Shown here piece by piece: positions 2,876 to 49,061 of a stretch of DNA of 64,000 nt; the first letter of the stretch is position 1, and every line of letters begins with the position of its first letter. Source of the DNA: an uncultured Acidobacteriaceae bacterium (GTDB lineage Bacteria > Acidobacteriota > Terriglobia > Bryobacterales > Bryobacteraceae); the NCBI GenBank assembly GCA_963814195.1, contig CAWFBU010000008.1, positions 19,659-83,658 of the forward strand, given 5' to 3'. The position numbers and the translations under genes are program-made. The notes beneath the pieces are model-generated. The model saw only the letters and a list, made by a program, of their open reading frames with translations. It did no database searches and was not told the DNA's origin.

Positions 2876-3760
2876 ATGGCTAACTACTCCAGACGCGACA
2901 TATTGAAGACCGGGTTCGCTGCGGCGACGGTCGCGGGAGCCGGCGGCTTTCAGCTGGGAGCGGCTCCGGCTAAAGCGACCGACTGGGTCACGCTTGGGAA
3001 GTCAGACGTGAAGGTCACGCGCCTTGCTTTTGGCACAGGAAGTTTCAGCGGGCGCGTCCAACGGGAGCTGGGACAGGAGCAGTTTACAAGCCTGGTTCGC
3101 TACGCCTACGATCACGGCGTTCGATTCTTTGAAACAGCCGAATCGTACGGTGACATGCACCGGATGCTGGGCGTGGCGCTGAAAGGCATCCCGCGAGACA
3201 GCTACCGGTTGATGTCGAAAGTGACGACGCGCGAAGGCATCGACCCTCAAGCAAAAATCGATGAACTCCGGAAACTCGCCAATACAGAGTACTTCGACAT
3301 TATGCTTCTGCACTGGCAGCACACGGGATCGTGGCCAACCGAAAGCCTGCGCTGGCAGGAGGGCATCCAGGAGGCACAGTCCAAGAAGGTTGTGGTCGGA
3401 CGCGGCGCCTCCGTGCACGGTCTTCCCGCGCTGAGGCAGGTCCCGGACAACAAATGGTTGGAAGTCGCCATGATTCGCGTGAATCACAAAGGCACTGCCA
3501 TGGACGCTGAGGACTACAACACGCGCGGTTTGGGCGATGTTCATGAAGTCGTCACGCATGTGAAGCAGGTCCGCAAAGAGGGCATGGGCGTCATCAGCAT
3601 GAAGCTGGTCGGCGAGGGCACGTTCACCAATCGTGAGGATCGCCAGGCTGCCATGCGCTTTGCCTTCAGGAACGCCGGGGTGAACTCGGTCACTGTGGGC
3701 TACAAGAATACGGCCGAGATCGATGAAGCGATCGAAAATCTGAATCTGGCTCTAGCTTAA
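2876..3760 (+). CDS. aldo/keto reductase with a Tat-type signal
   Basis: The N-terminus 'SRRDILKTGFAAATVAGAGG' is a twin-arginine leader. AKR-like segments include 'AYDHGVRFFETAESYG' and 'MLLHW'. Confidence 0.8.
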   Translation: MANYSRRDILKTGFAAATVAGAGGFQLGAAPAKATDWVTLGKSDVKVTRLAFGTGSFSGRVQRELGQEQFTSLVRYAYDHGVRFFETAESYGDMHRMLGVALKGIPRDSYRLMSKVTTREGIDPQAKIDELRKLANTEYFDIMLLHWQHTGSWPTESLRWQEGIQEAQSKKVVVGRGASVHGLPALRQVPDNKWLEVAMIRVNHKGTAMDAEDYNTRGLGDVHEVVTHVKQVRKEGMGVISMKLVGEGTFTNREDRQAAMRFAFRNAGVNSVTVGYKNTAEIDEAIENLNLALA

Positions 3761-3788
3761 GAACGAATCAACGAGGTTCAGTTCTGCG

Positions 3789-3825
3789 CCCTGGAGAGGA
3801 TGGCTTCTCCAGGGCTTTTCTTTGG
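3789..3825 (+). terminator. rho-independent terminator of the AKR gene
   Basis: A perfect 9-bp stem joins ccctggaga (3789-3797) and tctccaggg (3806-3814) around an 8-nt loop. A T-rich tail, cttttcttt, follows. Confidence 0.75.
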
Positions 3826-3848
3826 TCAAAAACGTCATTACCCTACCG

Positions 3849-3954
3849 CATGCTTCGCATCACAAACCCACGCATCAACGCTGTAACCCTTAGCTGACAA
3901 GAACACGTCAGAGATTGAGGAAGCAATTGACCGCCTGAACTTGGCCTGGCGTAG
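3849..3954 (+). pseudogene. 3'-terminal remnant of a second AKR paralog
   Basis: It translates in two frames as 'MLRITNPRINAVTLS*' and 'ADKNTSEIEEAIDRLNLAWR*'. This parallels the last 35 residues of the intact gene, 'MRFAFRNAGVNSVTVGYKNTAEIDEAIENLNLALA*'. Confidence 0.6.
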
Positions 3955-4124
3955 GTCCAGGTTTACCGCAACGTTTAGTGGCGATTTTCTGATTTCCGTC
4001 TTGGATGATTGAGGCGTTCTTTGGTCACTAGCGACGAAATAAAAGCAATACAGTGCGCCTGCGGTGTGCTCTACACTGCGCCAGTCTTAAACTATCACCG
4101 GCAGCCCAGCACGGGACTGAGCCG

Positions 4125-5201
4125 ATGAAGCTATCTTTCGCGCGTTCGCTCTTCGGCATTCTGAAACGCATGCAGCATCTGCCGACGGCTTCCCGAAACT
4201 GCTGCGCAATCATGGCCCTTGCTGTGCTCATCCCTGCTCATGTAAAGTGCGGGCAGACTGACTCGCCGCCTGCACTAACATCCACCATCAGCGGCTCCGT
4301 AGTTGACGAAACAGGGGCCGCTATCGTCGGAGCAGAAGTAAAGCTCTCGCATCTGGGCGACAAATCAGAATGGGAATCCCTGTCGGGTAACGCGGGGCAG
4401 TTCACTTTTGCGGCGGTAGCGTCGGGGCCCTTTGAAGTAATAGCCTCCGCTCCAGGCTTTGCAGATCAGGTATTGCGCGGCGTTGTAGCAACGGGCGAAT
4501 CATCGAAACTAAGCCCGATCGTCCTCACGCTTTCGCTTGTGACCGCCACGGTGCAAGTCAGGCTGACTCAGGTCGAACTCGCGCAAGAACAGATTAGAGT
4601 TCAGGAACAGCAACGCATCTTCGGATTATTGCCGAACTTCTTTGTCAGCTACCTTCCCGATGCAGAACCGCTTACGACAAAACAGAAATTTGAACTGGCC
4701 TGGAAATCCACACTCGATCCCGCGGCATTCGCGGTGAGTGCAATTATCGCCGGTGTTCAACAATCGAACGATGATTTCAGTGGATATGGCCAAGGGGCGA
4801 GCGGGTACGCCAAACGTTACGCGGCTTCCTATGGCAACTTCCTAACCGGCACCTATGTCAGTGGCGCCATCCTGCCCTTCGTTTTCCGGCAGGACCCGCG
4901 GTACTTCTATAAAGGCACTGGCAGTGCACGATCCAGAGTTCTCTATGCGCTCTCGCGATCCGTGATAGCCAAGGGTGACAATCAAAAGTGGCAGCCAGCT
5001 TATTCGAACATACTCGGAAGTCTTGCCTCCGCTGGCATTTCGAACCTCTACTATCCGGCGAAGGATCGAGACGGCATAAGCCTGACGTTCGAGAACTTAG
5101 TTATCGGGATCGGATCGGATGCCGTGTCTAATCTGTTTCAGGAATTCGTCGTGCGGAGGCTGACCCCTCATTCGAGTCTTAGGGCAGCCGCCAAACCATA
5201 A
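4125..5201 (+). CDS. carboxypeptidase-regulatory-like domain protein of unknown function
   Basis: 'ISGSVVDETGAAIVGAEVKLSHLG...GQFTFAAVASGPFEVIASAPGFADQ' is a CarboxypepD_reg-like beta-sandwich pattern. The C-terminal half has no recognised domain. The start was chosen at MKLSFARS. Confidence 0.55.
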   Translation: MKLSFARSLFGILKRMQHLPTASRNCCAIMALAVLIPAHVKCGQTDSPPALTSTISGSVVDETGAAIVGAEVKLSHLGDKSEWESLSGNAGQFTFAAVASGPFEVIASAPGFADQVLRGVVATGESSKLSPIVLTLSLVTATVQVRLTQVELAQEQIRVQEQQRIFGLLPNFFVSYLPDAEPLTTKQKFELAWKSTLDPAAFAVSAIIAGVQQSNDDFSGYGQGASGYAKRYAASYGNFLTGTYVSGAILPFVFRQDPRYFYKGTGSARSRVLYALSRSVIAKGDNQKWQPAYSNILGSLASAGISNLYYPAKDRDGISLTFENLVIGIGSDAVSNLFQEFVVRRLTPHSSLRAAAKP

Positions 5202-5228
5202 GTCTCCCGCTTGATACAATTCCGTCCG

Positions 5229-6119
5229 ATGCGACCCCTGCTGTTTCTCTTGATCAGTGCTGCGATGATGTTGTCCGGCGCATCCTCCGATGACAAGGAT
5301 CAAAAGGATGTCCAGTATGGAAAGGCCGGTGACACGGCGCTCCTACTGGATCTTCACATTCCCGATGGAGCTGGGCCATTCCCCGCGGCCATTCTGGTGC
5401 ATGGCGGAGGTTTTGATGGCGGAAGCAAGAGTACGAACGTTAAGCCGCTATTTGGTCCCTTGAGCGATGCCGGGTTTGCGTGGTTCAGCATCGATTACAG
5501 ACTGGCGCCGGCAGCCAAGTTTCCGCAGGCCATAGCCGACGTGAACACGGCCGTCCGCTGGGTGAAGGCCAATGCCACTAAGTATCACGTGGACATCTCG
5601 CGTCTCGCACTCATCGGAGAATCGGCGGGCGGACTTCTCGTGAACTATGCCGGCACTCACGATACGCCCGAGACCAAGGTAGCTGCTGTCGTGGACTTTT
5701 ACGGACCATCCGATTACGGCAAGCTGGCACAATTGCGGCGCAGCAACCCGGAGCGCTTTGACATGAACAACATCAACCAGCATGCTGCCCACGGCGGCGG
5801 CATTCACTTTTTCGGAGTGGATAACCTGGATGAAGCTGGACTGACGAAGCTGCATTCGCTTGCTCCCATTGCGGGCGTGCACCGCGGGATGCCTCCGTTC
5901 CTTATCATTCATGGCAACAAGGACGATCAGGTCGTCTTCGAGCAGTCGCCGCCCTTCTGTGAAGCGATTCGCGCTGCAGGTTCGGACTGCGAACTGATCA
6001 CCATTCAAGATGGTGGACACGGCATGTCAAAGTGGCGAACGCCGGAGATGCAGCACTACAAAGCAGAGATGATCGCCTGGCTGCAGAAAGAGCTTCGGGT
6101 CCGTTCGACTCACTCTTAA
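5229..6119 (+). CDS. secreted alpha/beta hydrolase (esterase/lipase, HSL-type fold-3)
   Basis: It has a signal peptide (MRPLLFLLISAAMMLSGA), the oxyanion motif 'VHGGGF' and the nucleophile elbow 'GESAGG'. Confidence 0.75.
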   Translation: MRPLLFLLISAAMMLSGASSDDKDQKDVQYGKAGDTALLLDLHIPDGAGPFPAAILVHGGGFDGGSKSTNVKPLFGPLSDAGFAWFSIDYRLAPAAKFPQAIADVNTAVRWVKANATKYHVDISRLALIGESAGGLLVNYAGTHDTPETKVAAVVDFYGPSDYGKLAQLRRSNPERFDMNNINQHAAHGGGIHFFGVDNLDEAGLTKLHSLAPIAGVHRGMPPFLIIHGNKDDQVVFEQSPPFCEAIRAAGSDCELITIQDGGHGMSKWRTPEMQHYKAEMIAWLQKELRVRSTHS

Positions 6120-6214
6120 ATTGACCTGGGCACCGGCTGGGTTGGTCTAACGTAGCGCGTGGTGTGTTGTAATTTGGGGCCTGGACACAATCACCTTGGA
6201 ATTCGCCGTGTCTC

Positions 6215-6826
6215 TTATTGATTCTGAATTCGAGTCATAGGAGGACTCGTGTACCCGAAGGTAGCTTTCACATAGTCTTCCAGTTCGAAACAGGAAAATG
6301 AAGGGCTTTGTCGCGACTTCTCAGGTGCAACGTGGAATATATTAACCGAAGTACTGCAGTCCCGAAGCTCTCCCGTCTCGAAATTATAAAGGATGCCTAC
6401 AGTGTCCAGAAAGGTTCCTTGGTTATCCATAGCGGAATCGCCGAACGACTTCGACTCGACTTCCAGCAATAGCACTTGCCCCTCTGCCAACCATTGCCTT
6501 GTTCTCATCTTTTGATAGGTCCCAAGTACCTTAAGCTTGAACCTCGCTTCATCGTCCTGAAATCCACCTGTAGTGCGCGCAAAAATTGTAATTGTGTATC
6601 CGGCCTCGGACCACCTGGGCGTCTCGATGAGATAGCCGTAGTTGATGTTGTTGGTCGATTTACGAACGTTTGCGGACATAGTTACTGGCACGTACCATCC
6701 TGGCCAGCGAACGAATCCCCAGTCTCCCAAGAAAAACCAGAGCCCGAATGCTACAAGCACACTCGAAAGCCCAACCAGAATAGCGACGAATGTCCGCCAC
6801 CCTCGACGTCGATCTCGAAACGTCAT
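6215..6826 (-). CDS. hypothetical N-terminally membrane-anchored protein, possibly an immunity-type partner
   Basis: 203-aa ORF with one TM helix ('TFVAILVGLSSVLVAFGLWFFLG'). It starts 20 nt downstream of the toxin-like gene and lies in the A+T-richer region. Confidence 0.45.
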   Translation of the reverse strand: MTFRDRRRGWRTFVAILVGLSSVLVAFGLWFFLGDWGFVRWPGWYVPVTMSANVRKSTNNINYGYLIETPRWSEAGYTITIFARTTGGFQDDEARFKLKVLGTYQKMRTRQWLAEGQVLLLEVESKSFGDSAMDNQGTFLDTVGILYNFETGELRDCSTSVNIFHVAPEKSRQSPSFSCFELEDYVKATFGYTSPPMTRIQNQ

Positions 6827-6846
6827 TGTTGCCCTAACCTGCTTCG

Positions 6847-8523
6847 CTACTTACAAAATTCACTCTGTATTCGTCCTGCTATATCTGAGACTTGTAAGGT
6901 GCTCCGCAATTGGCTTCCCAGGTTTGCGGCGTCCGCTCCCAACTGTATGTCGTTTGTGTTCGTAGGTGTGCCTTCGTACCGCTCCCACAGACTAGCTATC
7001 TGCCAACCAGCTATAGATCGATAGTGGTAGCCTAGCTGAAAAAATGCTGCGAAATGATGGCCTTGGTCTTGATCGGGTCTTATAGAATCTTGATAATTGG
7101 GTTTAAACCCCGAGGGATTCCCGCTGCTTCCACCCGGATTTCCAAGATAGACTGGACTTTGGACGCCCTCTAAGCCAGGAGCGCGGATAGTGAACGTCAT
7201 ACCAGGAGCGACGGTGATTACCTTCCTTACAGGAGGGTGTAGGAGAGAGAAAGCAGATACAAATTTGTCTTCGTTGGTTCCGATGTACGTTGCGGCAGCT
7301 TGAGCAAACGAAGCAAGAGCGTTACAATCGTTTCCGTTCGGCGTACCTACCGAGAAGTTCGCCAAATCTCTCAGTTTGATGTAGAGCTGCTGAAGCGGAG
7401 TTACATTTGGAATACTGTACGGATGAGCGGAACCGAAATCGTAGACATAGCCGCAAAAGCCCTCGGGATCATCAAAATAGCAGCCCTAATCGCTCGAAAC
7501 ACCGTAAGAGTAGAACGGGTTGAAGAATTCACCGGCGACTTCAGTAGCGCCTCTTGAGGCGCTACTAAGAAATGGGGGCATGTTTAAGTTGCCAGTCGGT
7601 TCGCTGGCAGTAATCCTTAAAGGAAGCGATATTAAGTTATATGTGTAATCGGTAGGGTCAGAGTCTTTATCATAGTTCGTGAGGCGGTGCAGGCTAAAAC
7701 TTTGGTAATTGCTACTTCCTGATAGGACATGTAGTTCGACCTTTCCTGATCCGCCACCCCATCCTTAAATCCCCACTACATCGGGTACGCCATCATAGTC
7801 GAAATCACGAACCGTAAAACTTGTGTTCTGATATGCGCCTGTGAATGGAGTAGCGGCATTAAGCAAAAAGCTCTGGAAGTTATTTGATCCATCTAATACG
7901 TGAATCGTGACATCCCCCGCATCGTCGTTTTCTTGAACCGTGGCAAATAGATCCAAAATGCCGTCTCCATTGTAATCAGCCATGCTGTAAGTTACAGTTT
8001 CCTGAAAACTCGGAGCGTAAGGTGTTCCCGCGTGAACAATAAAATCCTGATAATTGCCTGCTCCAGAAAGAACATGAACTTCGACGCTAATCGATGAACC
8101 ATTAGGGCGGTCAGGAATACAGACTAGGTCCGGAATCCCATCTTTGTCAACATCAGCCATGACATAACGTACGCTGTTATCTGAGACTGCAGGCCAAGCG
8201 GTTGAGACGTGTGTCAGCCATTGTTGAAAGTTCGTGTACCCCGAAAGGGCATGGATCTCTACATAGGGAACTCCGTTCGTCTTCACGGCAACGAGGTCAG
8301 GGAGACCATCAGAGTCGTAATCAATCATAGATAAGCTAAAGTGCGTGGGGTCGCCGTAAGCCTCGAGAGGAGTGCCGACTGATAGGGTCACGCCCTGGTA
8401 ATTACTCGCAAAATCGGCGATATGAACCTCTGAGTTCGAGGTATTGTTGTGCTTCAAAGCGGGCCGCGGGAGTAGATCCTGCCAAACATTGGCTGGAATT
8501 CGGATACAAAGAGAATCGGCCAC
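6847..8523 (-). pseudogene. FG-GAP/VCBS-type repeat protein with an unknown C-terminal domain, interrupted by two in-frame stops
   Basis: ORFs 7765..8523 and 6847..7365 and the stretch between them share one frame. In-frame TAA lies at 7767-7765 and TAG at 7488-7486. The repeat 'VE[VIL]H[VA]L[SD]G..N[YF]Q.[FW]' plus 'D.D.DG.PD[LV]V' occurs on both sides of the TAA. Confidence 0.75.
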
Positions 8524-8688
8524 TACGGTAGTTCAGTATTCCTGGTTTTAACAAGGGCTATTACCGCCCAGGGCAAGATCTCGGGGAAAGTACCATTCGT
8601 TCCCCCGACTTTGATTGCAGGATATTAATTCTTCGATCCGAAACCCCGGGTTTTTTACGGGATCTAATCAGTGGAGGAGCTGATACAA

Positions 8689-9003
8689 ATGAGAAAAATA
8701 GCTCTTATTATTTCCTTGAGCGCAGCACTGATGCTTTCCACTAATCTGTTTGCGCAAGACCACGACGATCACCGTGACCGCGATGATCATCATGATCGCG
8801 ACGATCGCCATCATGTTTACGACAGGAATCACAGGGATTACCATGATTTCGACGAACACGAGGACCGGGCCTGGAGAGTTTACTGGCAGCAACAGCACCG
8901 CGACTACGTCGATTGGGGCCGTGCTTCCGACCGACAGCGGCAGGATTACTGGAACTGGCGTCATAATCATTCGGACGCGATTCTCAATATCAACATCCGC
9001 TAA
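8689..9003 (+). CDS. small secreted His/Asp/Arg-rich protein
   Basis: A GGAGG box lies about 10 nt upstream of the ATG. The signal peptide MRKIALIISLSAALMLSTNLFAQ is followed by 'DHDDHRDRDDHHDRDDRHHVYDRNHRDYHDFDEHED...YWNWRHNH'. Confidence 0.6.
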   Translation: MRKIALIISLSAALMLSTNLFAQDHDDHRDRDDHHDRDDRHHVYDRNHRDYHDFDEHEDRAWRVYWQQQHRDYVDWGRASDRQRQDYWNWRHNHSDAILNINIR

Positions 9004-9295
9004 CATCTACTTCGACGAGGGGACCGGCCCGTAGCGAAAGGTCCCGCTTGTCTGGCTACTTTGGGTGTCGAGTCGTCTCATTGAACCACCATTGAAACGG
9101 GGGAACCGCCATTAACGACCGTCGACCGGTTCTACCGTCGGGGCTTATCTCTCTCCACTTACAAGGGAACGCCGAAAGCGCATTGCTCCGTTTGACCACG
9201 GGGAGAGTCCGGCCGGTTTGAAACCAAACGCGCTCTGGTTGAAGAATGCGCTGACACATTGACGCCCAAACGGGCCAGGAGTAGCCTTAGAGTGT

Positions 9296-9919
9296 ATGGA
9301 GCCTAGCGTCGACATCTACGTACCCTCGCGTCTTTACGCGCGTGTCGGCTGGGCAGCGCTCGCTGGCTCTCTCGTATGTGTGCTTTGCGGGTTTCGAGCG
9401 CATTTAGCCTTCATACCCGCGGCGCTTTGTATCGCCACGGCACTCGTTCTCTTCTGGCTTTCAGTTCGCCCGGCGATCCGAATCGGGCATACCCAGTTCA
9501 ACGTCGGTGAGCGAGCCATCGCCTGGCGTGAAATCCGCGAAATCAACACCAGCCGGTTTGTTTCCCCTCTGGTGATCAAACTGAAGCTGACAAACTCCCG
9601 GCATAAACGTCTGGTCTTTCCTGGTGATCCGGAGCGGATTGCCAAGTTGATGTTTCATCTGCGTAAACATTCGACTCAGGCTACTTTCGACGGTGTTGCT
9701 TACCGTGATTATTGGACCTGGAACAACATCAAGGAACAGACTGGCGGCGACGTGACGGAACGCGGCCCCGTTCGCATGCTCAGCCGGGACGACGAAGACG
9801 AGATAGAACGAATGTTCAAGCGGCTGAAAAGTGTAGGGCGGCTGGATTCTTTGAGTAACGGATACAACGAGCAAAGATCCTTCGAAAACGCCTCGCGAGG
9901 ATTAGCGCCTGACTGCTAG
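9296..9919 (+). CDS. hypothetical membrane protein
   Basis: 207-aa ORF with two N-terminal hydrophobic helices and a charged C-terminal half. No family was recognised. Confidence 0.45.
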   Translation: MEPSVDIYVPSRLYARVGWAALAGSLVCVLCGFRAHLAFIPAALCIATALVLFWLSVRPAIRIGHTQFNVGERAIAWREIREINTSRFVSPLVIKLKLTNSRHKRLVFPGDPERIAKLMFHLRKHSTQATFDGVAYRDYWTWNNIKEQTGGDVTERGPVRMLSRDDEDEIERMFKRLKSVGRLDSLSNGYNEQRSFENASRGLAPDC

Positions 9920-47504: not shown

Positions 47505-49061
47505 GTGTCAGGGCAAATTGATCCGTGGCCTGAGTATTGCCGCCGATTAAACAAGCATTACCGGCAGGGCGACTTACGAGTGCTTGCCGGGGCTGGACTT
47601 TCTGTCGATGCCGGATTTCCGAGTTGGGGCGAGCTTAACCAAGCTCTGCTGCGACGGTACATCGAGGATGACCTGGGGCGCGATCCGAAATCGCAGCCAA
47701 TCATTCAACAACATCTGGATGAGCTAGTAGATGAGCTGTACCAGACGATCGGCCGGGAGGCCGCTGCCGACTTCGTTTGGAATTCCAGCACGCGCGAGAA
47801 CTTCTTCGAAGACCTGCGCCAACTTCTTTACGGCGATCGTAGCCTGAAAGATCTTTTTCTCACTCAAGTCCATTGGCAGTTGGCAGCTATGGACAAGGCT
47901 ACGCTGTTTACGACGAACTTCGACCCGCTGCTGGAACTGGCCCGCTACCGGGTACGGGGCGGCACCTCCGATGACCCGGACCTTCATATGTTCCGTTCGG
48001 CAAATCCACCAGCGGATCGATCGGAACCGGATACGAATCGCGTTTACCACGTGCATGGCTGGATCGATCCGGATGGGATCTGCGGCGGTTCTTTTGTCCT
48101 GACCGAATCACAGTATTTCGAGTTGTTCAGCCGGCAGGGCCAACGACCGAACCAGATGCTGGAGTATGCGCTGACATCGGGCGGCGCAGTTTTGATTCTG
48201 GGCATGAGCCTGGCGGACGTTAATCTGAGGCGGCACCTCTACCTACGTTCGCTTAGCCGCATCTCGGACTCGACAGAAATCTATGCTGTGCTGCGCGTGC
48301 ATGACCGCCGACTGCTGGACACATACCAGACCTTACATTGGGCTAATCGCGGCGTGCGCCTGATCTATGTAGAGGATTATGATGGCATTCCGAAGATGCT
48401 GCGGGAGATTAAATTCGGTCTGCCGACAAAGCCCGGCGCACCGCTCCCATGGATGACGGAAACGTATAAGTGGACGCAAAGCCACTTGCCGCAAAGCCTC
48501 ATCTTTACTGATGCATGGCAAGATCGGGCCTGCAAGATTCTTCGCCGGGTGGCCGCAGGTTTCCGTGAAAGCTTCGCGGTTCCCCAACAAGAGACGATCA
48601 ACCTGACCTTGATGGGCCAGATTGCAGAAGATCGCATTGCCTCGTTTGCGGAGAGCCGGAAACAATATACGGGCGCGGCAGCAGAAGAGTATGCGGCGAG
48701 ATTCCAACTGTTAGTAGGTCAAAGCGCGCAAGGGATTACAGGCAATGCCTTCTCAAAAGGACGCGCCATTGAGGTGCTGGACGACCCGGACCTAGCTGAT
48801 GAAAATTTCACACCGGAGATGAAGCAGCAATATATTCAAAGACGCCGAACTTGGCGCTCATTGCTGGCTGTTCCCTATCTGGAGACCAGCGATCGTCTGC
48901 CTGTGTTGGTGATCTCGGTCACATCTAACCTGAACGAACCATTCTGGATACGGTTCGGGGCCAAGAAGCAGGCCTATCGAGACGAATTAAATCAGGCATT
49001 AGAACTGACGGTACGAGAAATTCTAAGTATTTCTATACATCGAGCTGTTGGTTCGCCCTAG
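47505..49061 (+). CDS. SIR2_2-type (ThsA/DSR-like) domain fused to a GAF-like C-terminal domain
   Basis: GTG start. The SIR2_2 landmarks are 'LRVLAGAGLSVDAGFPSWGELNQAL', 'TLFTTNFDPLLE', 'RVYHVHGW' and 'AVLILGMSLADVNL'. The C-terminal segment is 'GITGNAFSKGRAIEVLDDPDLADENF...WRSLLAVPYLETSDRLPVLVISVTSNLNEPF'. Confidence 0.7.
   Translation: MSGQIDPWPEYCRRLNKHYRQGDLRVLAGAGLSVDAGFPSWGELNQALLRRYIEDDLGRDPKSQPIIQQHLDELVDELYQTIGREAAADFVWNSSTRENFFEDLRQLLYGDRSLKDLFLTQVHWQLAAMDKATLFTTNFDPLLELARYRVRGGTSDDPDLHMFRSANPPADRSEPDTNRVYHVHGWIDPDGICGGSFVLTESQYFELFSRQGQRPNQMLEYALTSGGAVLILGMSLADVNLRRHLYLRSLSRISDSTEIYAVLRVHDRRLLDTYQTLHWANRGVRLIYVEDYDGIPKMLREIKFGLPTKPGAPLPWMTETYKWTQSHLPQSLIFTDAWQDRACKILRRVAAGFRESFAVPQQETINLTLMGQIAEDRIASFAESRKQYTGAAAEEYAARFQLLVGQSAQGITGNAFSKGRAIEVLDDPDLADENFTPEMKQQYIQRRRTWRSLLAVPYLETSDRLPVLVISVTSNLNEPFWIRFGAKKQAYRDELNQALELTVREILSISIHRAVGSP

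Follow-up and report, generated by a model that had tools for sequence, protein, structure and literature searches.

What kind of gene runs in a single frame for 559 codons, carries two stop codons within that frame and ends immediately ahead of a small, intact gene for a membrane protein? We addressed this question for a 64,000-nucleotide (nt) stretch of DNA from an uncultured Acidobacteriaceae bacterium (contig CAWFBU010000008.1 of GenBank assembly GCA_963814195.1, positions 19,659 to 83,658), the whole of which is termed the window and in whose coordinates all positions are given. The minus strand of the window encodes FG-GAP-like repeats followed by a C-terminal (CT) domain between positions 8523 and 6847, and then an open reading frame (ORF) of 203 amino acids (aa), termed ORF203, at 6826..6215. 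Our analysis makes it quite likely that this locus is what remains, after decay, of a pair of genes for interbacterial competition, in which the toxin gene is broken and its immunity neighbour is intact. The pseudogene itself is ordinary, as toxin genes decay and immunity genes linger, and the polymorphic toxin/immunity module is already known as a system; the novelty lies in the toxin domain family.

One-frame translation of the region 6100-8700 on the minus strand yields a single 559-codon frame from a GTG at 8523 to a terminal TAG at 6849-6847, interrupted by a TAA at 7767-7765 (codon 253, at a repeat boundary), by a TAG at 7488-7486 (codon 346, within a linker) and by no other stop. Base-level checking placed the first in the context ATT TAA GGA (7770-7762) and the second in the context GAT TAG GGC (7491-7483), reproducing exactly the positions at which the original prediction had described one frame broken just by these two codons. 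Two internal stops in 558 codons compare with a mean of 26.4 and a minimum of 9 among 2000 shuffles of the same bases, and the remaining five frames of the region hold 25-41 stops each. The frame thus falls into a first fragment (7768..8523; the 252-aa ORF of gene callers) comprising a vestigial N-terminus and repeats 1-4, a second fragment between both stops (7489..7764) comprising the fifth FG-GAP-like repeat and the initial part of the linker, the remaining linker or pre-toxin region (7354..7485; modelled with low confidence), and the CT toxin-type domain of an uncharacterised family (6847..7353; ~165 aa plus the stop). The repeat unit continues uninterrupted across the TAA ('...DYDGVPDVVGI*GWGGGSGKVELHVLSGSSNYQSF'), a crossing claimed earlier from the letters and seen here both in translation and in alignment to a homolog. 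Furthermore, the three pieces have a GC content at third codon positions of 0.468, 0.467 and 0.467, compared to 0.59-0.65 in flanking genes; such a uniform value of 0.47, below that of the neighbours, fits one foreign gene.

Evidence for a single ancestral gene also comes from P0028, an intact homolog of 566 aa in which a signal peptide leads into five FG-GAP-like repeats, followed by a linker and by a CT domain of the same family. Residues 15-558 of the window read-through are collinear with P0028 residues 27-565 (E 4e-86, 35% identity), an alignment that covers all five repeats, the linker and the CT domain. Fragment 1, which shows 33-39% identity to the repeat modules of secreted hydrolases, aligns to P0028 residues 27-266, fragment 2 is collinear with residues 267-~355 (pairing 'GKVELHVLSG' with 'GKVEFHVTTG'), and the linkers pair as 'DPTDYTYNLISL' in the window and 'DPLDYVYLIIDL' in P0028. 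Because this collinearity extends from end to end, the three pieces are fragments of one ancestral gene, as had been supposed, and no frameshift occurs along the alignment, in keeping with the view that the breaks are substitutions. P0028 itself is unbroken and carries Ser at the residue equivalent to the TAA. Among relatives of the repeat module, Lys occupies the equivalent residue at 35 of 58 repeat boundaries ('DLVAIKK'); since Lys prevails there, AAA>TAA is the simplest origin of the TAA, which probably arose in this way.

The two proteins differ at their N-termini. P0028 begins with a typical 26-aa signal peptide, MDFNNTKKINLIVTVIIYLLGRCTNAQ, which precedes the counterpart of window residue 15, whereas the window ORF begins 'MADSLCIRIPANVW', 14 non-hydrophobic residues without a hydrophobic core. 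The GTG at 8523 is preceded by in-frame stops at distances of ~12 nt (4 codons) and ~27 nt (9 codons), and no signal-peptide remnant was recognisable in any frame of 8524..8670, the expected place of the signal-peptide-coding 5' end on the minus strand. An N-terminal trafficking determinant, one of the hallmarks of polymorphic toxins (Zhang, de Souza, Anantharaman, Iyer and Aravind 2012, PMC3482391), is accordingly present in P0028 and absent from the window ORF. Given that P0028 has a signal peptide and the window copy has none, the export signal has been lost from the window copy. A 5' truncation had been suggested for this gene; the missing signal peptide and the upstream stops agree with it, but the loss is small (a signal peptide of ~26 aa) and not a large truncation. 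Ultimately, 8523..6847 is a pseudogene with three lesions, namely two nonsense substitutions and a lost signal peptide (~26 codons), and with no frameshift.

We characterized the CT domain by an exhaustive HMMER search of the C-terminal 212 aa against 1.84 billion representatives of clusters formed at 50% identity, which returned 158 clusters at E<=1e-3, 43 of them at E<=1e-10, almost all from Acidobacteriota, with matches mostly beginning at query residue ~45-52 of the 212-aa piece. A word-indexed search of 5.8 billion proteins with the same piece returned zero homologs, a false negative given the 158 clusters found by HMMER; word-indexed calls of 'no homolog' or 'orphan' are hence weak negatives that need caution, the one for ORF203 included. 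The family shares the motifs DC[QNE]AL, SGF...YQD, DQxHHFAAFFQLGY, NxGDxxLG and a terminal [IL]Cx(1-2)-COOH. A 67-sequence alignment shows no variation at Q141, D179 and A186, all 66 sequences aligned at C54 have this residue, and H143, H144, F145, G152 and G190 each occur in 66 of 67; C54 and C211, the latter a Cys two residues from the C-terminus, occur together in 64 of 67. The Cys and His singled out by the original prediction are therefore near-invariant in the family. The window copy retains every conserved domain residue, which argues that the toxin gene was inactivated recently.

The placement of the domain is that of a toxin tip. In 127 of 130 cases its end falls no more than 10 residues short of the C-terminus of the chain, an Rhs core-end motif is present in 47 of the best 150 matches (about a third), and RHS_repeat and Rhs_assc_core (TIGR03696) match directly N-terminal of the domain in many members. 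Rhs_assc_core precedes it in P0026, P0032, P0050, P0066 and P0106, and P0059 and P0088 are further RHS-repeat carriers; in P0066 (836 aa), for instance, the Rhs core spans residues 541-620 and the CT domain 666-819, the gap between core and domain being ~45 aa in Rhs members. In most other acidobacterial genomes an Rhs protein bears the domain at its tip, from which it would be released behind the Rhs core. P0047 has a ricin-B lectin carrier in place of Rhs, and many members stand alone as short ORFs or form arrayed cassettes. The domain is therefore a cassette shared among RHS, ricin-B, FG-GAP and stand-alone contexts, as described for polymorphic toxins (Zhang et al. 2012). Rhs-tip placement, an extreme C-terminal position and carrier swapping together amount to the behaviour of a polymorphic-toxin cassette, and we thus read the domain as a polymorphic-toxin-type module, a mobile C-terminal cassette; its position after Rhs cores in many proteins bears out the toxin-type assignment made at first reading. 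As a separate observation, the similarity of P0047 to the family stops right after HHFAAYFQLGY and gives way to a different end, so that P0047 is possibly another frameshifted, decaying copy.

Family members found no match in Pfam, NCBIfam or PDB sequences, the 67-sequence profile included (PDB gave nothing below E 0.25), and none of the Ntox/Tox families in Pfam matches the domain; when all four locus pieces were searched against Pfam and NCBIfam, the FG-GAP part alone matched. A putative link of the CT domain to the middle domain of P0002 ('YQLGY') was rejected (BLASTP E 0.11). Structure prediction gave a confident model of the CT piece when AlphaFold (AF2) was run with an alignment (predicted local distance difference test, pLDDT, 84.7; predicted template modelling score 0.82). 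It comprises eight helices and a single hairpin, with residues 1-30 of the 212-aa piece at pLDDT 52-70; this model supersedes a single-sequence prediction that was uninformative (pLDDT 36). Foldseek comparison of the model to PDB found no similar fold (best E 1.7, template modelling score 0.16), and viral models in BFVD likewise gave none. The structural check proposed for this domain therefore delivered a confident model without matching a known toxin fold or any other.

These results do not favour the papain or NlpC/P60-type identity that had been suggested, speculatively, from the order of Cys and His. The likeness to such peptidases consists in a conserved Cys N-terminal of conserved His residues. 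In the papain fold, however, the nucleophile Cys sits at the N-terminus of a helix and the His on a beta-strand, whereas the His pair of the window domain stands at the start of a helix in our model; with no profile match, a mostly helical model, no Foldseek match and a Cys paired with a C-terminal Cys, we set this assignment aside. A bacterial phospholipase A2 was likewise considered and dropped (no Foldseek match in PDB or BFVD). As C54 and C211 are conserved as a pair, one at each end of the domain, a disulfide is more likely than a nucleophile, and a C54-C211 disulfide probably staples the domain ends together.

To describe the genes adjacent to this domain in relatives, we scanned one genome per species (26 loci), 25 of which belong to Acidobacteriota (Bryobacteraceae, Solibacteraceae, Terriglobia, Pyrinomonadaceae and Blastocatellia). 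At 21 of the 26 loci an ORF begins between -43 and +57 nt from the stop of the toxin gene; 20 of these ORFs measure 118-206 aa and one measures 82 aa, and they are of signal-peptide, lipoprotein or membrane types, so that the proposed downstream synteny of a small exported or membrane protein holds at most related loci. They divide into two mutually unrelated families, for neither of which Pfam gave a credible match. Family A, from Bryobacterales and Solibacterales, has a signal peptide, mostly a recognisable lipobox and a 'WSxDS..VAV' motif, and adjoins the two closest homologs of the window domain (44-46% identity; loci L003/L030 and L029). Family B consists of 3-4-transmembrane proteins of ~150 aa from Pyrinomonadaceae and Blastocatellia. 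The toxin domain family, both families of immunity candidates and the combination of FG-GAP-like repeats with the toxin domain are undescribed in the libraries searched.

Several of these loci have further features. Orphan toxin/immunity cassettes occur at L003, L006, L020 and L029. At L029 (4400-8800), P0025, the closest homolog of the window domain (46% identity), lies in an orphan-cassette array beside an Rhs fragment, with genes for a family-A lipoprotein and for IS66-family transposases after it. L008 (5425-7260) carries four tandem family-A lipoprotein paralogs, 63-74% identical over their N-terminal halves, of which two are truncated; they come straight after an Rhs gene with the window-type toxin domain, an arrangement that looks like a poly-immunity array. 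At L003/L030 (1865-3200), a second Rhs-tip cassette with a faint Ntox37 match and its own small downstream ORF lies 3' of the toxin/lipoprotein pair, so that several different toxin tips are stacked at one locus. Features of this kind (arrays of orphan cassettes, immunity paralogs in tandem, an adjacent IS66 element) typify polymorphic toxin loci.

ORF203 occupies the corresponding place in the window, as it starts 20 nt past the TAG terminator of the toxin gene. It has an Arg-rich N-terminus and a single hydrophobic, transmembrane segment at residues ~10-39, and by the positive-inside rule ~165 aa of it are predicted to face the periplasm; it is like the related downstream ORFs in position, in similar size and in its exported or membrane topology. 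Sequence comparison gave no homolog: PDB sequences contained no match, the word index of 5.8 billion proteins returned ORF203 alone, a BLASTP comparison with 24 downstream ORFs found none, the profile hidden Markov model of lipoprotein family A gave none even at E 100, and neither tblastn against all fetched loci nor a pattern scan of metagenomes found any. An hhalign comparison to family A was not significant (probability 0.2%) and aligned just 'PRWSEAGYTITIF' with the 'WSxDSxxVAV' motif. As regards a cognate immunity role, the position therefore fits and homology to other downstream ORFs was not detected. The immunity neighbour postulated at the outset thus stands on its position, its single transmembrane segment and the precedent of 21 of 26 loci, though not on similarity of ORF203 to any candidate. 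On position and topology, we judge it somewhat more probable than otherwise that ORF203 is the cognate immunity protein.

The carrier of the window gene is an FG-GAP-like propeller. The 252-aa piece matches Pfam FG-GAP_3 (PF13517; E 3.4e-22, 79 bits with a cut-off of 26.9) and FG-GAP (PF01839; E 9e-11, 41.8 bits with a cut-off of 22.1), and five repeats of the consensus 'DxDxDG.PD[LV]V' plus 'VE[VI]H[VA]LSG..N[YF]Q.F' can be read directly. Loops of the Ca-binding DxDxDG type that mark the blades of FG-GAP/VCBS beta-propellers are present ('DYDSDGLPD', 'DVDKDGIPD', 'DYNGDGILD' and 'DFDYDGVPD'), and the repeats supply the central carrier that polymorphic toxins display (Zhang et al. 2012). The nearest relatives of the repeats are secreted proteins of 450-600 aa, 31-39% identical (29% for the two weakest of 22 matches), in which the repeats are partnered with astacin, peptidase M43, papain C1, matrixin, GH25 lysozyme, CHAP, CAP or SH3 domains. 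The pattern 'TGTNSTEVHVLSGASNFQ.F...DWNGDGRPDLVAIKK' is common to these secreted hydrolases and the window gene. The hydrolases, however, place the catalytic domain N-terminally and the repeats C-terminally, an order that is reversed in the window gene and P0028, and unlike them the window gene joins its repeats to a domain of toxin type, behind which a linked gene lies. VCBS/FG-GAP propellers are typically carbohydrate- or surface-recognition modules (PMC9218822, PMC8023676), and the propeller of the window gene may accordingly have served as a carbohydrate- or surface-binding carrier in the role of a lectin. In two fungal proteins (P0007 and P0011), FG-GAP-like repeats with 33-35% identity are joined to a HET (heterokaryon incompatibility) domain; an FG-GAP-like recognition module is thus common to bacterial secreted enzymes and toxins and to fungal self/non-self incompatibility proteins. 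The rest of the window holds no paralogs of the FG-GAP or CT parts.

We propose the following history for the locus. The ancestral protein would have been a Sec-exported polypeptide of ~565 aa composed of a signal peptide, a five-repeat FG-GAP/VCBS propeller, a linker and a ~165-aa toxin domain, encoded in a module that was acquired by an Acidobacteriota-type chromosome. Its activity probably centred on a cluster formed by D140-Q141-x-H143-H144, E168 and N176-x-G-D179, and would have been directed at the envelope, be it the periplasm, the membrane, the wall or a lipid-linked precursor, rather than at the cytoplasm. Periplasmic or membrane-bound immunity candidates, the apparent disulfide and the lectin-type character of the non-Rhs carriers together make the cell envelope the most likely site of action. 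A Sec-dependent toxin crosses the periplasm of its producer, where ORF203 would block it; such transit would explain an inner-membrane-tethered, periplasm-facing immunity protein like ORF203. The toxin gene would then have been silenced by the two nonsense substitutions and the loss of the signal peptide, while ORF203 may have been kept either as immunity that is still useful (against kin) or for want of time to decay.

Beyond this locus, it is tentatively conceivable, at somewhat less than an even chance, that the CT domain represents a structurally novel envelope-toxin family, almost confined to Acidobacteriota, with at least three carriers (Rhs cage, FG-GAP propeller and ricin-B lectin), three or more kinds of immunity protein that are unrelated to one another (a periplasmic lipoprotein, a 3-4-transmembrane protein and the single-pass ORF203 type) and a new catalytic or membrane-disrupting mechanism built on D-Q-x-H-H and N-x-G-D. 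The family is toxin-like in its genomics and comes from Acidobacteriota that live in soil and with mosses; this phylum is dominant in soil but has been little studied, and hardly any of its competition systems have been characterised. Its candidate immunity partners are of contrasting architecture and thereby make both the site of action and the activity testable, and a family model would help annotators to name many 'hypothetical' Rhs tips.

Other explanations of the locus begin with the stops themselves. The window is apparently metagenome-derived and coverage in public runs is low (word depth 2-3), which would allow for sequencing or assembly errors in a gene that is in fact intact. Yet an independent assembly contains a 5722-bp Logan contig (L001, run ERR11523670) with 100% identity to window positions 3586-9307, both stops included, and three further runs in two studies each carry one stop on an identical contig: X1, from another public run, spans the TAA, and X4 and X5, from moss metagenomes of a second study, span the TAG. 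No variant letters are reported at the stops in the matching public contigs, and no intact allele was found in JGI metagenomes with a pattern that spans the TAA and leaves its codon free. As independent assemblies carry both stops unchanged, the support check suggested for them comes out in favour of real lesions that have become fixed in the population sampled; assembly did not create the stops, and we give an intact gene next to no probability. Equally improbable, in our estimation, is that a full-length protein is made by programmed readthrough, a suppressor tRNA or an altered code, an idea in keeping with the otherwise perfectly preserved frame and the intact catalytic motifs. TAA and TAG each end 12 of the 30 long ORFs of the window (24 of 30 together) and are thus its normal terminators, so that both codons are read as standard stops and the gene as a pseudogene; two different stops would need to be suppressed, for a gene without a signal peptide for export, and recoding signals are not known for such genes, none having been searched for.

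A different possibility accepts the stops and takes the pieces to be functional as they stand: the 252-aa ORF as a stand-alone FG-GAP protein, and a 172-aa ORF (TTG 7365..6847) with ORF203 as an orphan cassette that serves as a recombination reservoir or as protective immunity, as at Rhs and contact-dependent inhibition loci. The frequent occurrence of the CT family as short stand-alone ORFs or arrayed cassettes, the intact state of ORF203 and of the conserved CT residues, and the calling of the 252-aa ORF as a gene in the independent assembly (L001) would all suit this explanation. It is nevertheless unlikely, as the repeat and the P0028 alignment cross both stops and make the split secondary, the 252-aa piece has no signal peptide and terminates in mid-propeller, the gene caller predicted no gene at 6847-7365 in L001, and the window holds no full-length Rhs or FG-GAP toxin gene as a recombination partner. 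We rate as slighter still the chance that the ancestral protein was not a toxin at all and was instead a secreted lectin-enzyme (for example, in polysaccharide or cell-wall turnover) beside a membrane protein of unrelated function. Fusions of the FG-GAP-like module to secreted hydrolases of ordinary kinds (astacin, M43, papain C1, GH25, CHAP and CAP) and of the CT domain to a ricin-B lectin are what such a protein would predict, and toxicity itself is deduced. Against it stand the Rhs core-end motif directly upstream in 47 of 150 matches and the TIGR03696 matches, together with the extreme C-terminal position, a linked small gene at 21 of 26 loci, tandem paralog arrays and orphan cassettes; Rhs tips, linked small genes, arrays and cassettes are diagnostic of toxin/immunity modules (PMC3482391). 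All of these alternatives explain the collinearity with P0028, the Rhs-tip placement and the downstream linkage less well than does a decayed toxin gene with a surviving immunity neighbour.

A number of points also weigh against a decayed toxin/immunity module. Only two fusions of FG-GAP-like repeats to the CT domain are known, in the window gene and in P0028, which leaves P0028 as the sole other example, and its 1959-bp contig (SRR31724262) ends 50 nt past the gene and shows no gene downstream. ORF203 has no homolog in family A, in family B or elsewhere, the large-collection searches being limited to words or patterns, a type of search that had missed the entire CT family. No secretion-system or Rhs genes lie near the locus in the window. 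Lastly, the toxicity of the CT domain, like its disulfide and envelope localisation, is something that we infer, and no fold or family match hints at an activity.

The proposed toxin gene with its immunity neighbour resembles known systems to differing degrees. Among Sec-dependent polymorphic toxins, architectures of a signal peptide plus a beta-propeller are on record (Zhang et al. 2012, PMC3482391, Table 1), and propeller-bearing predicted archaeal toxins are cited in PMC8023676 from Makarova et al. 2019. P0028 and the ancestor of the window gene would share with the former the order of signal peptide, propeller and C-terminal toxin domain and an adjacent immunity gene; the differences are that the window CT domain falls outside the Pfam Ntox/Tox families, that lipoproteins or membrane proteins make up the immunity candidates, and that the window copy is a pseudogene. 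Lipoprotein and membrane immunity proteins were exceptional in the 2012 survey, in which secreted or transmembrane immunity proteins accompany surface-acting toxins (PMC3482391). Rhs toxins (a YD-repeat shell, the TIGR03696 core, a variable CT and an immunity gene) have in common with the locus, through its homologs, the same CT family, a small downstream gene, orphan cassettes and immunity arrays. The window gene itself, however, lacks RHS repeats and the core (PxxxxDPxGL), with no RHS_repeat or TIGR03696 match on any piece; its carrier is an FG-GAP-like propeller, with a plain Sec signal in P0028, and its CT is not a described Rhs-CT family. The closest functional analogues would be colicin M with Cmi and pesticin with Pim, which combine a receptor-binding module and a toxic domain active outside the cytoplasm with an immunity protein that is tethered to the inner membrane and faces the periplasm. 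ORF203 is predicted to have a like topology, whereas the window CT domain has no similarity to solved structures and no TonB box or translocation domain was identified.

The pseudogene and ORF203 lie, together with the start of a neighbouring His-rich gene, in a low-GC island at 6.1-8.9 kb (6100..8900; GC 0.45-0.52 compared to 0.55-0.59 in the flanks) that was likely acquired horizontally. No flanking direct repeats, target-site duplication, tRNA or integrase were found at the island borders, and promoter and terminator scans stayed at chance level; short direct or inverted repeats in and around the island (7082-7099 with 8039-8056, and 8531-8544) are likewise of the kind expected by chance. 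The neighbouring gene, on the plus strand at 8671-9003 and divergent from the pseudogene, encodes 110 aa with a signal peptide followed by an extremely His/Asp/Arg-rich stretch (DHDDHRDRDDHHDRDDRHH...); it has no Pfam match, lies partly within the island and may specify a periplasmic metal-binding protein. The surrounding window is ordinary chromosome, with genes for LpxC, a CDP-alcohol transferase, an aldo-keto reductase, CarboxypepD_reg/outer-membrane-protein barrels (OMP_b-brl_4), GH127, GH32, MurJ and RecN; the CarboxypepD_reg/OMP_b-brl_4 and LpxC genes, along with the distribution of the CT family, point to an Acidobacteriota-type chromosome. Between the GH32 glycosidase gene and other metabolic genes, a gene at 47505-49061 on the plus strand specifies 518 aa that include a SIR2_2 domain (E 1e-16), which anti-phage defence systems often contain.

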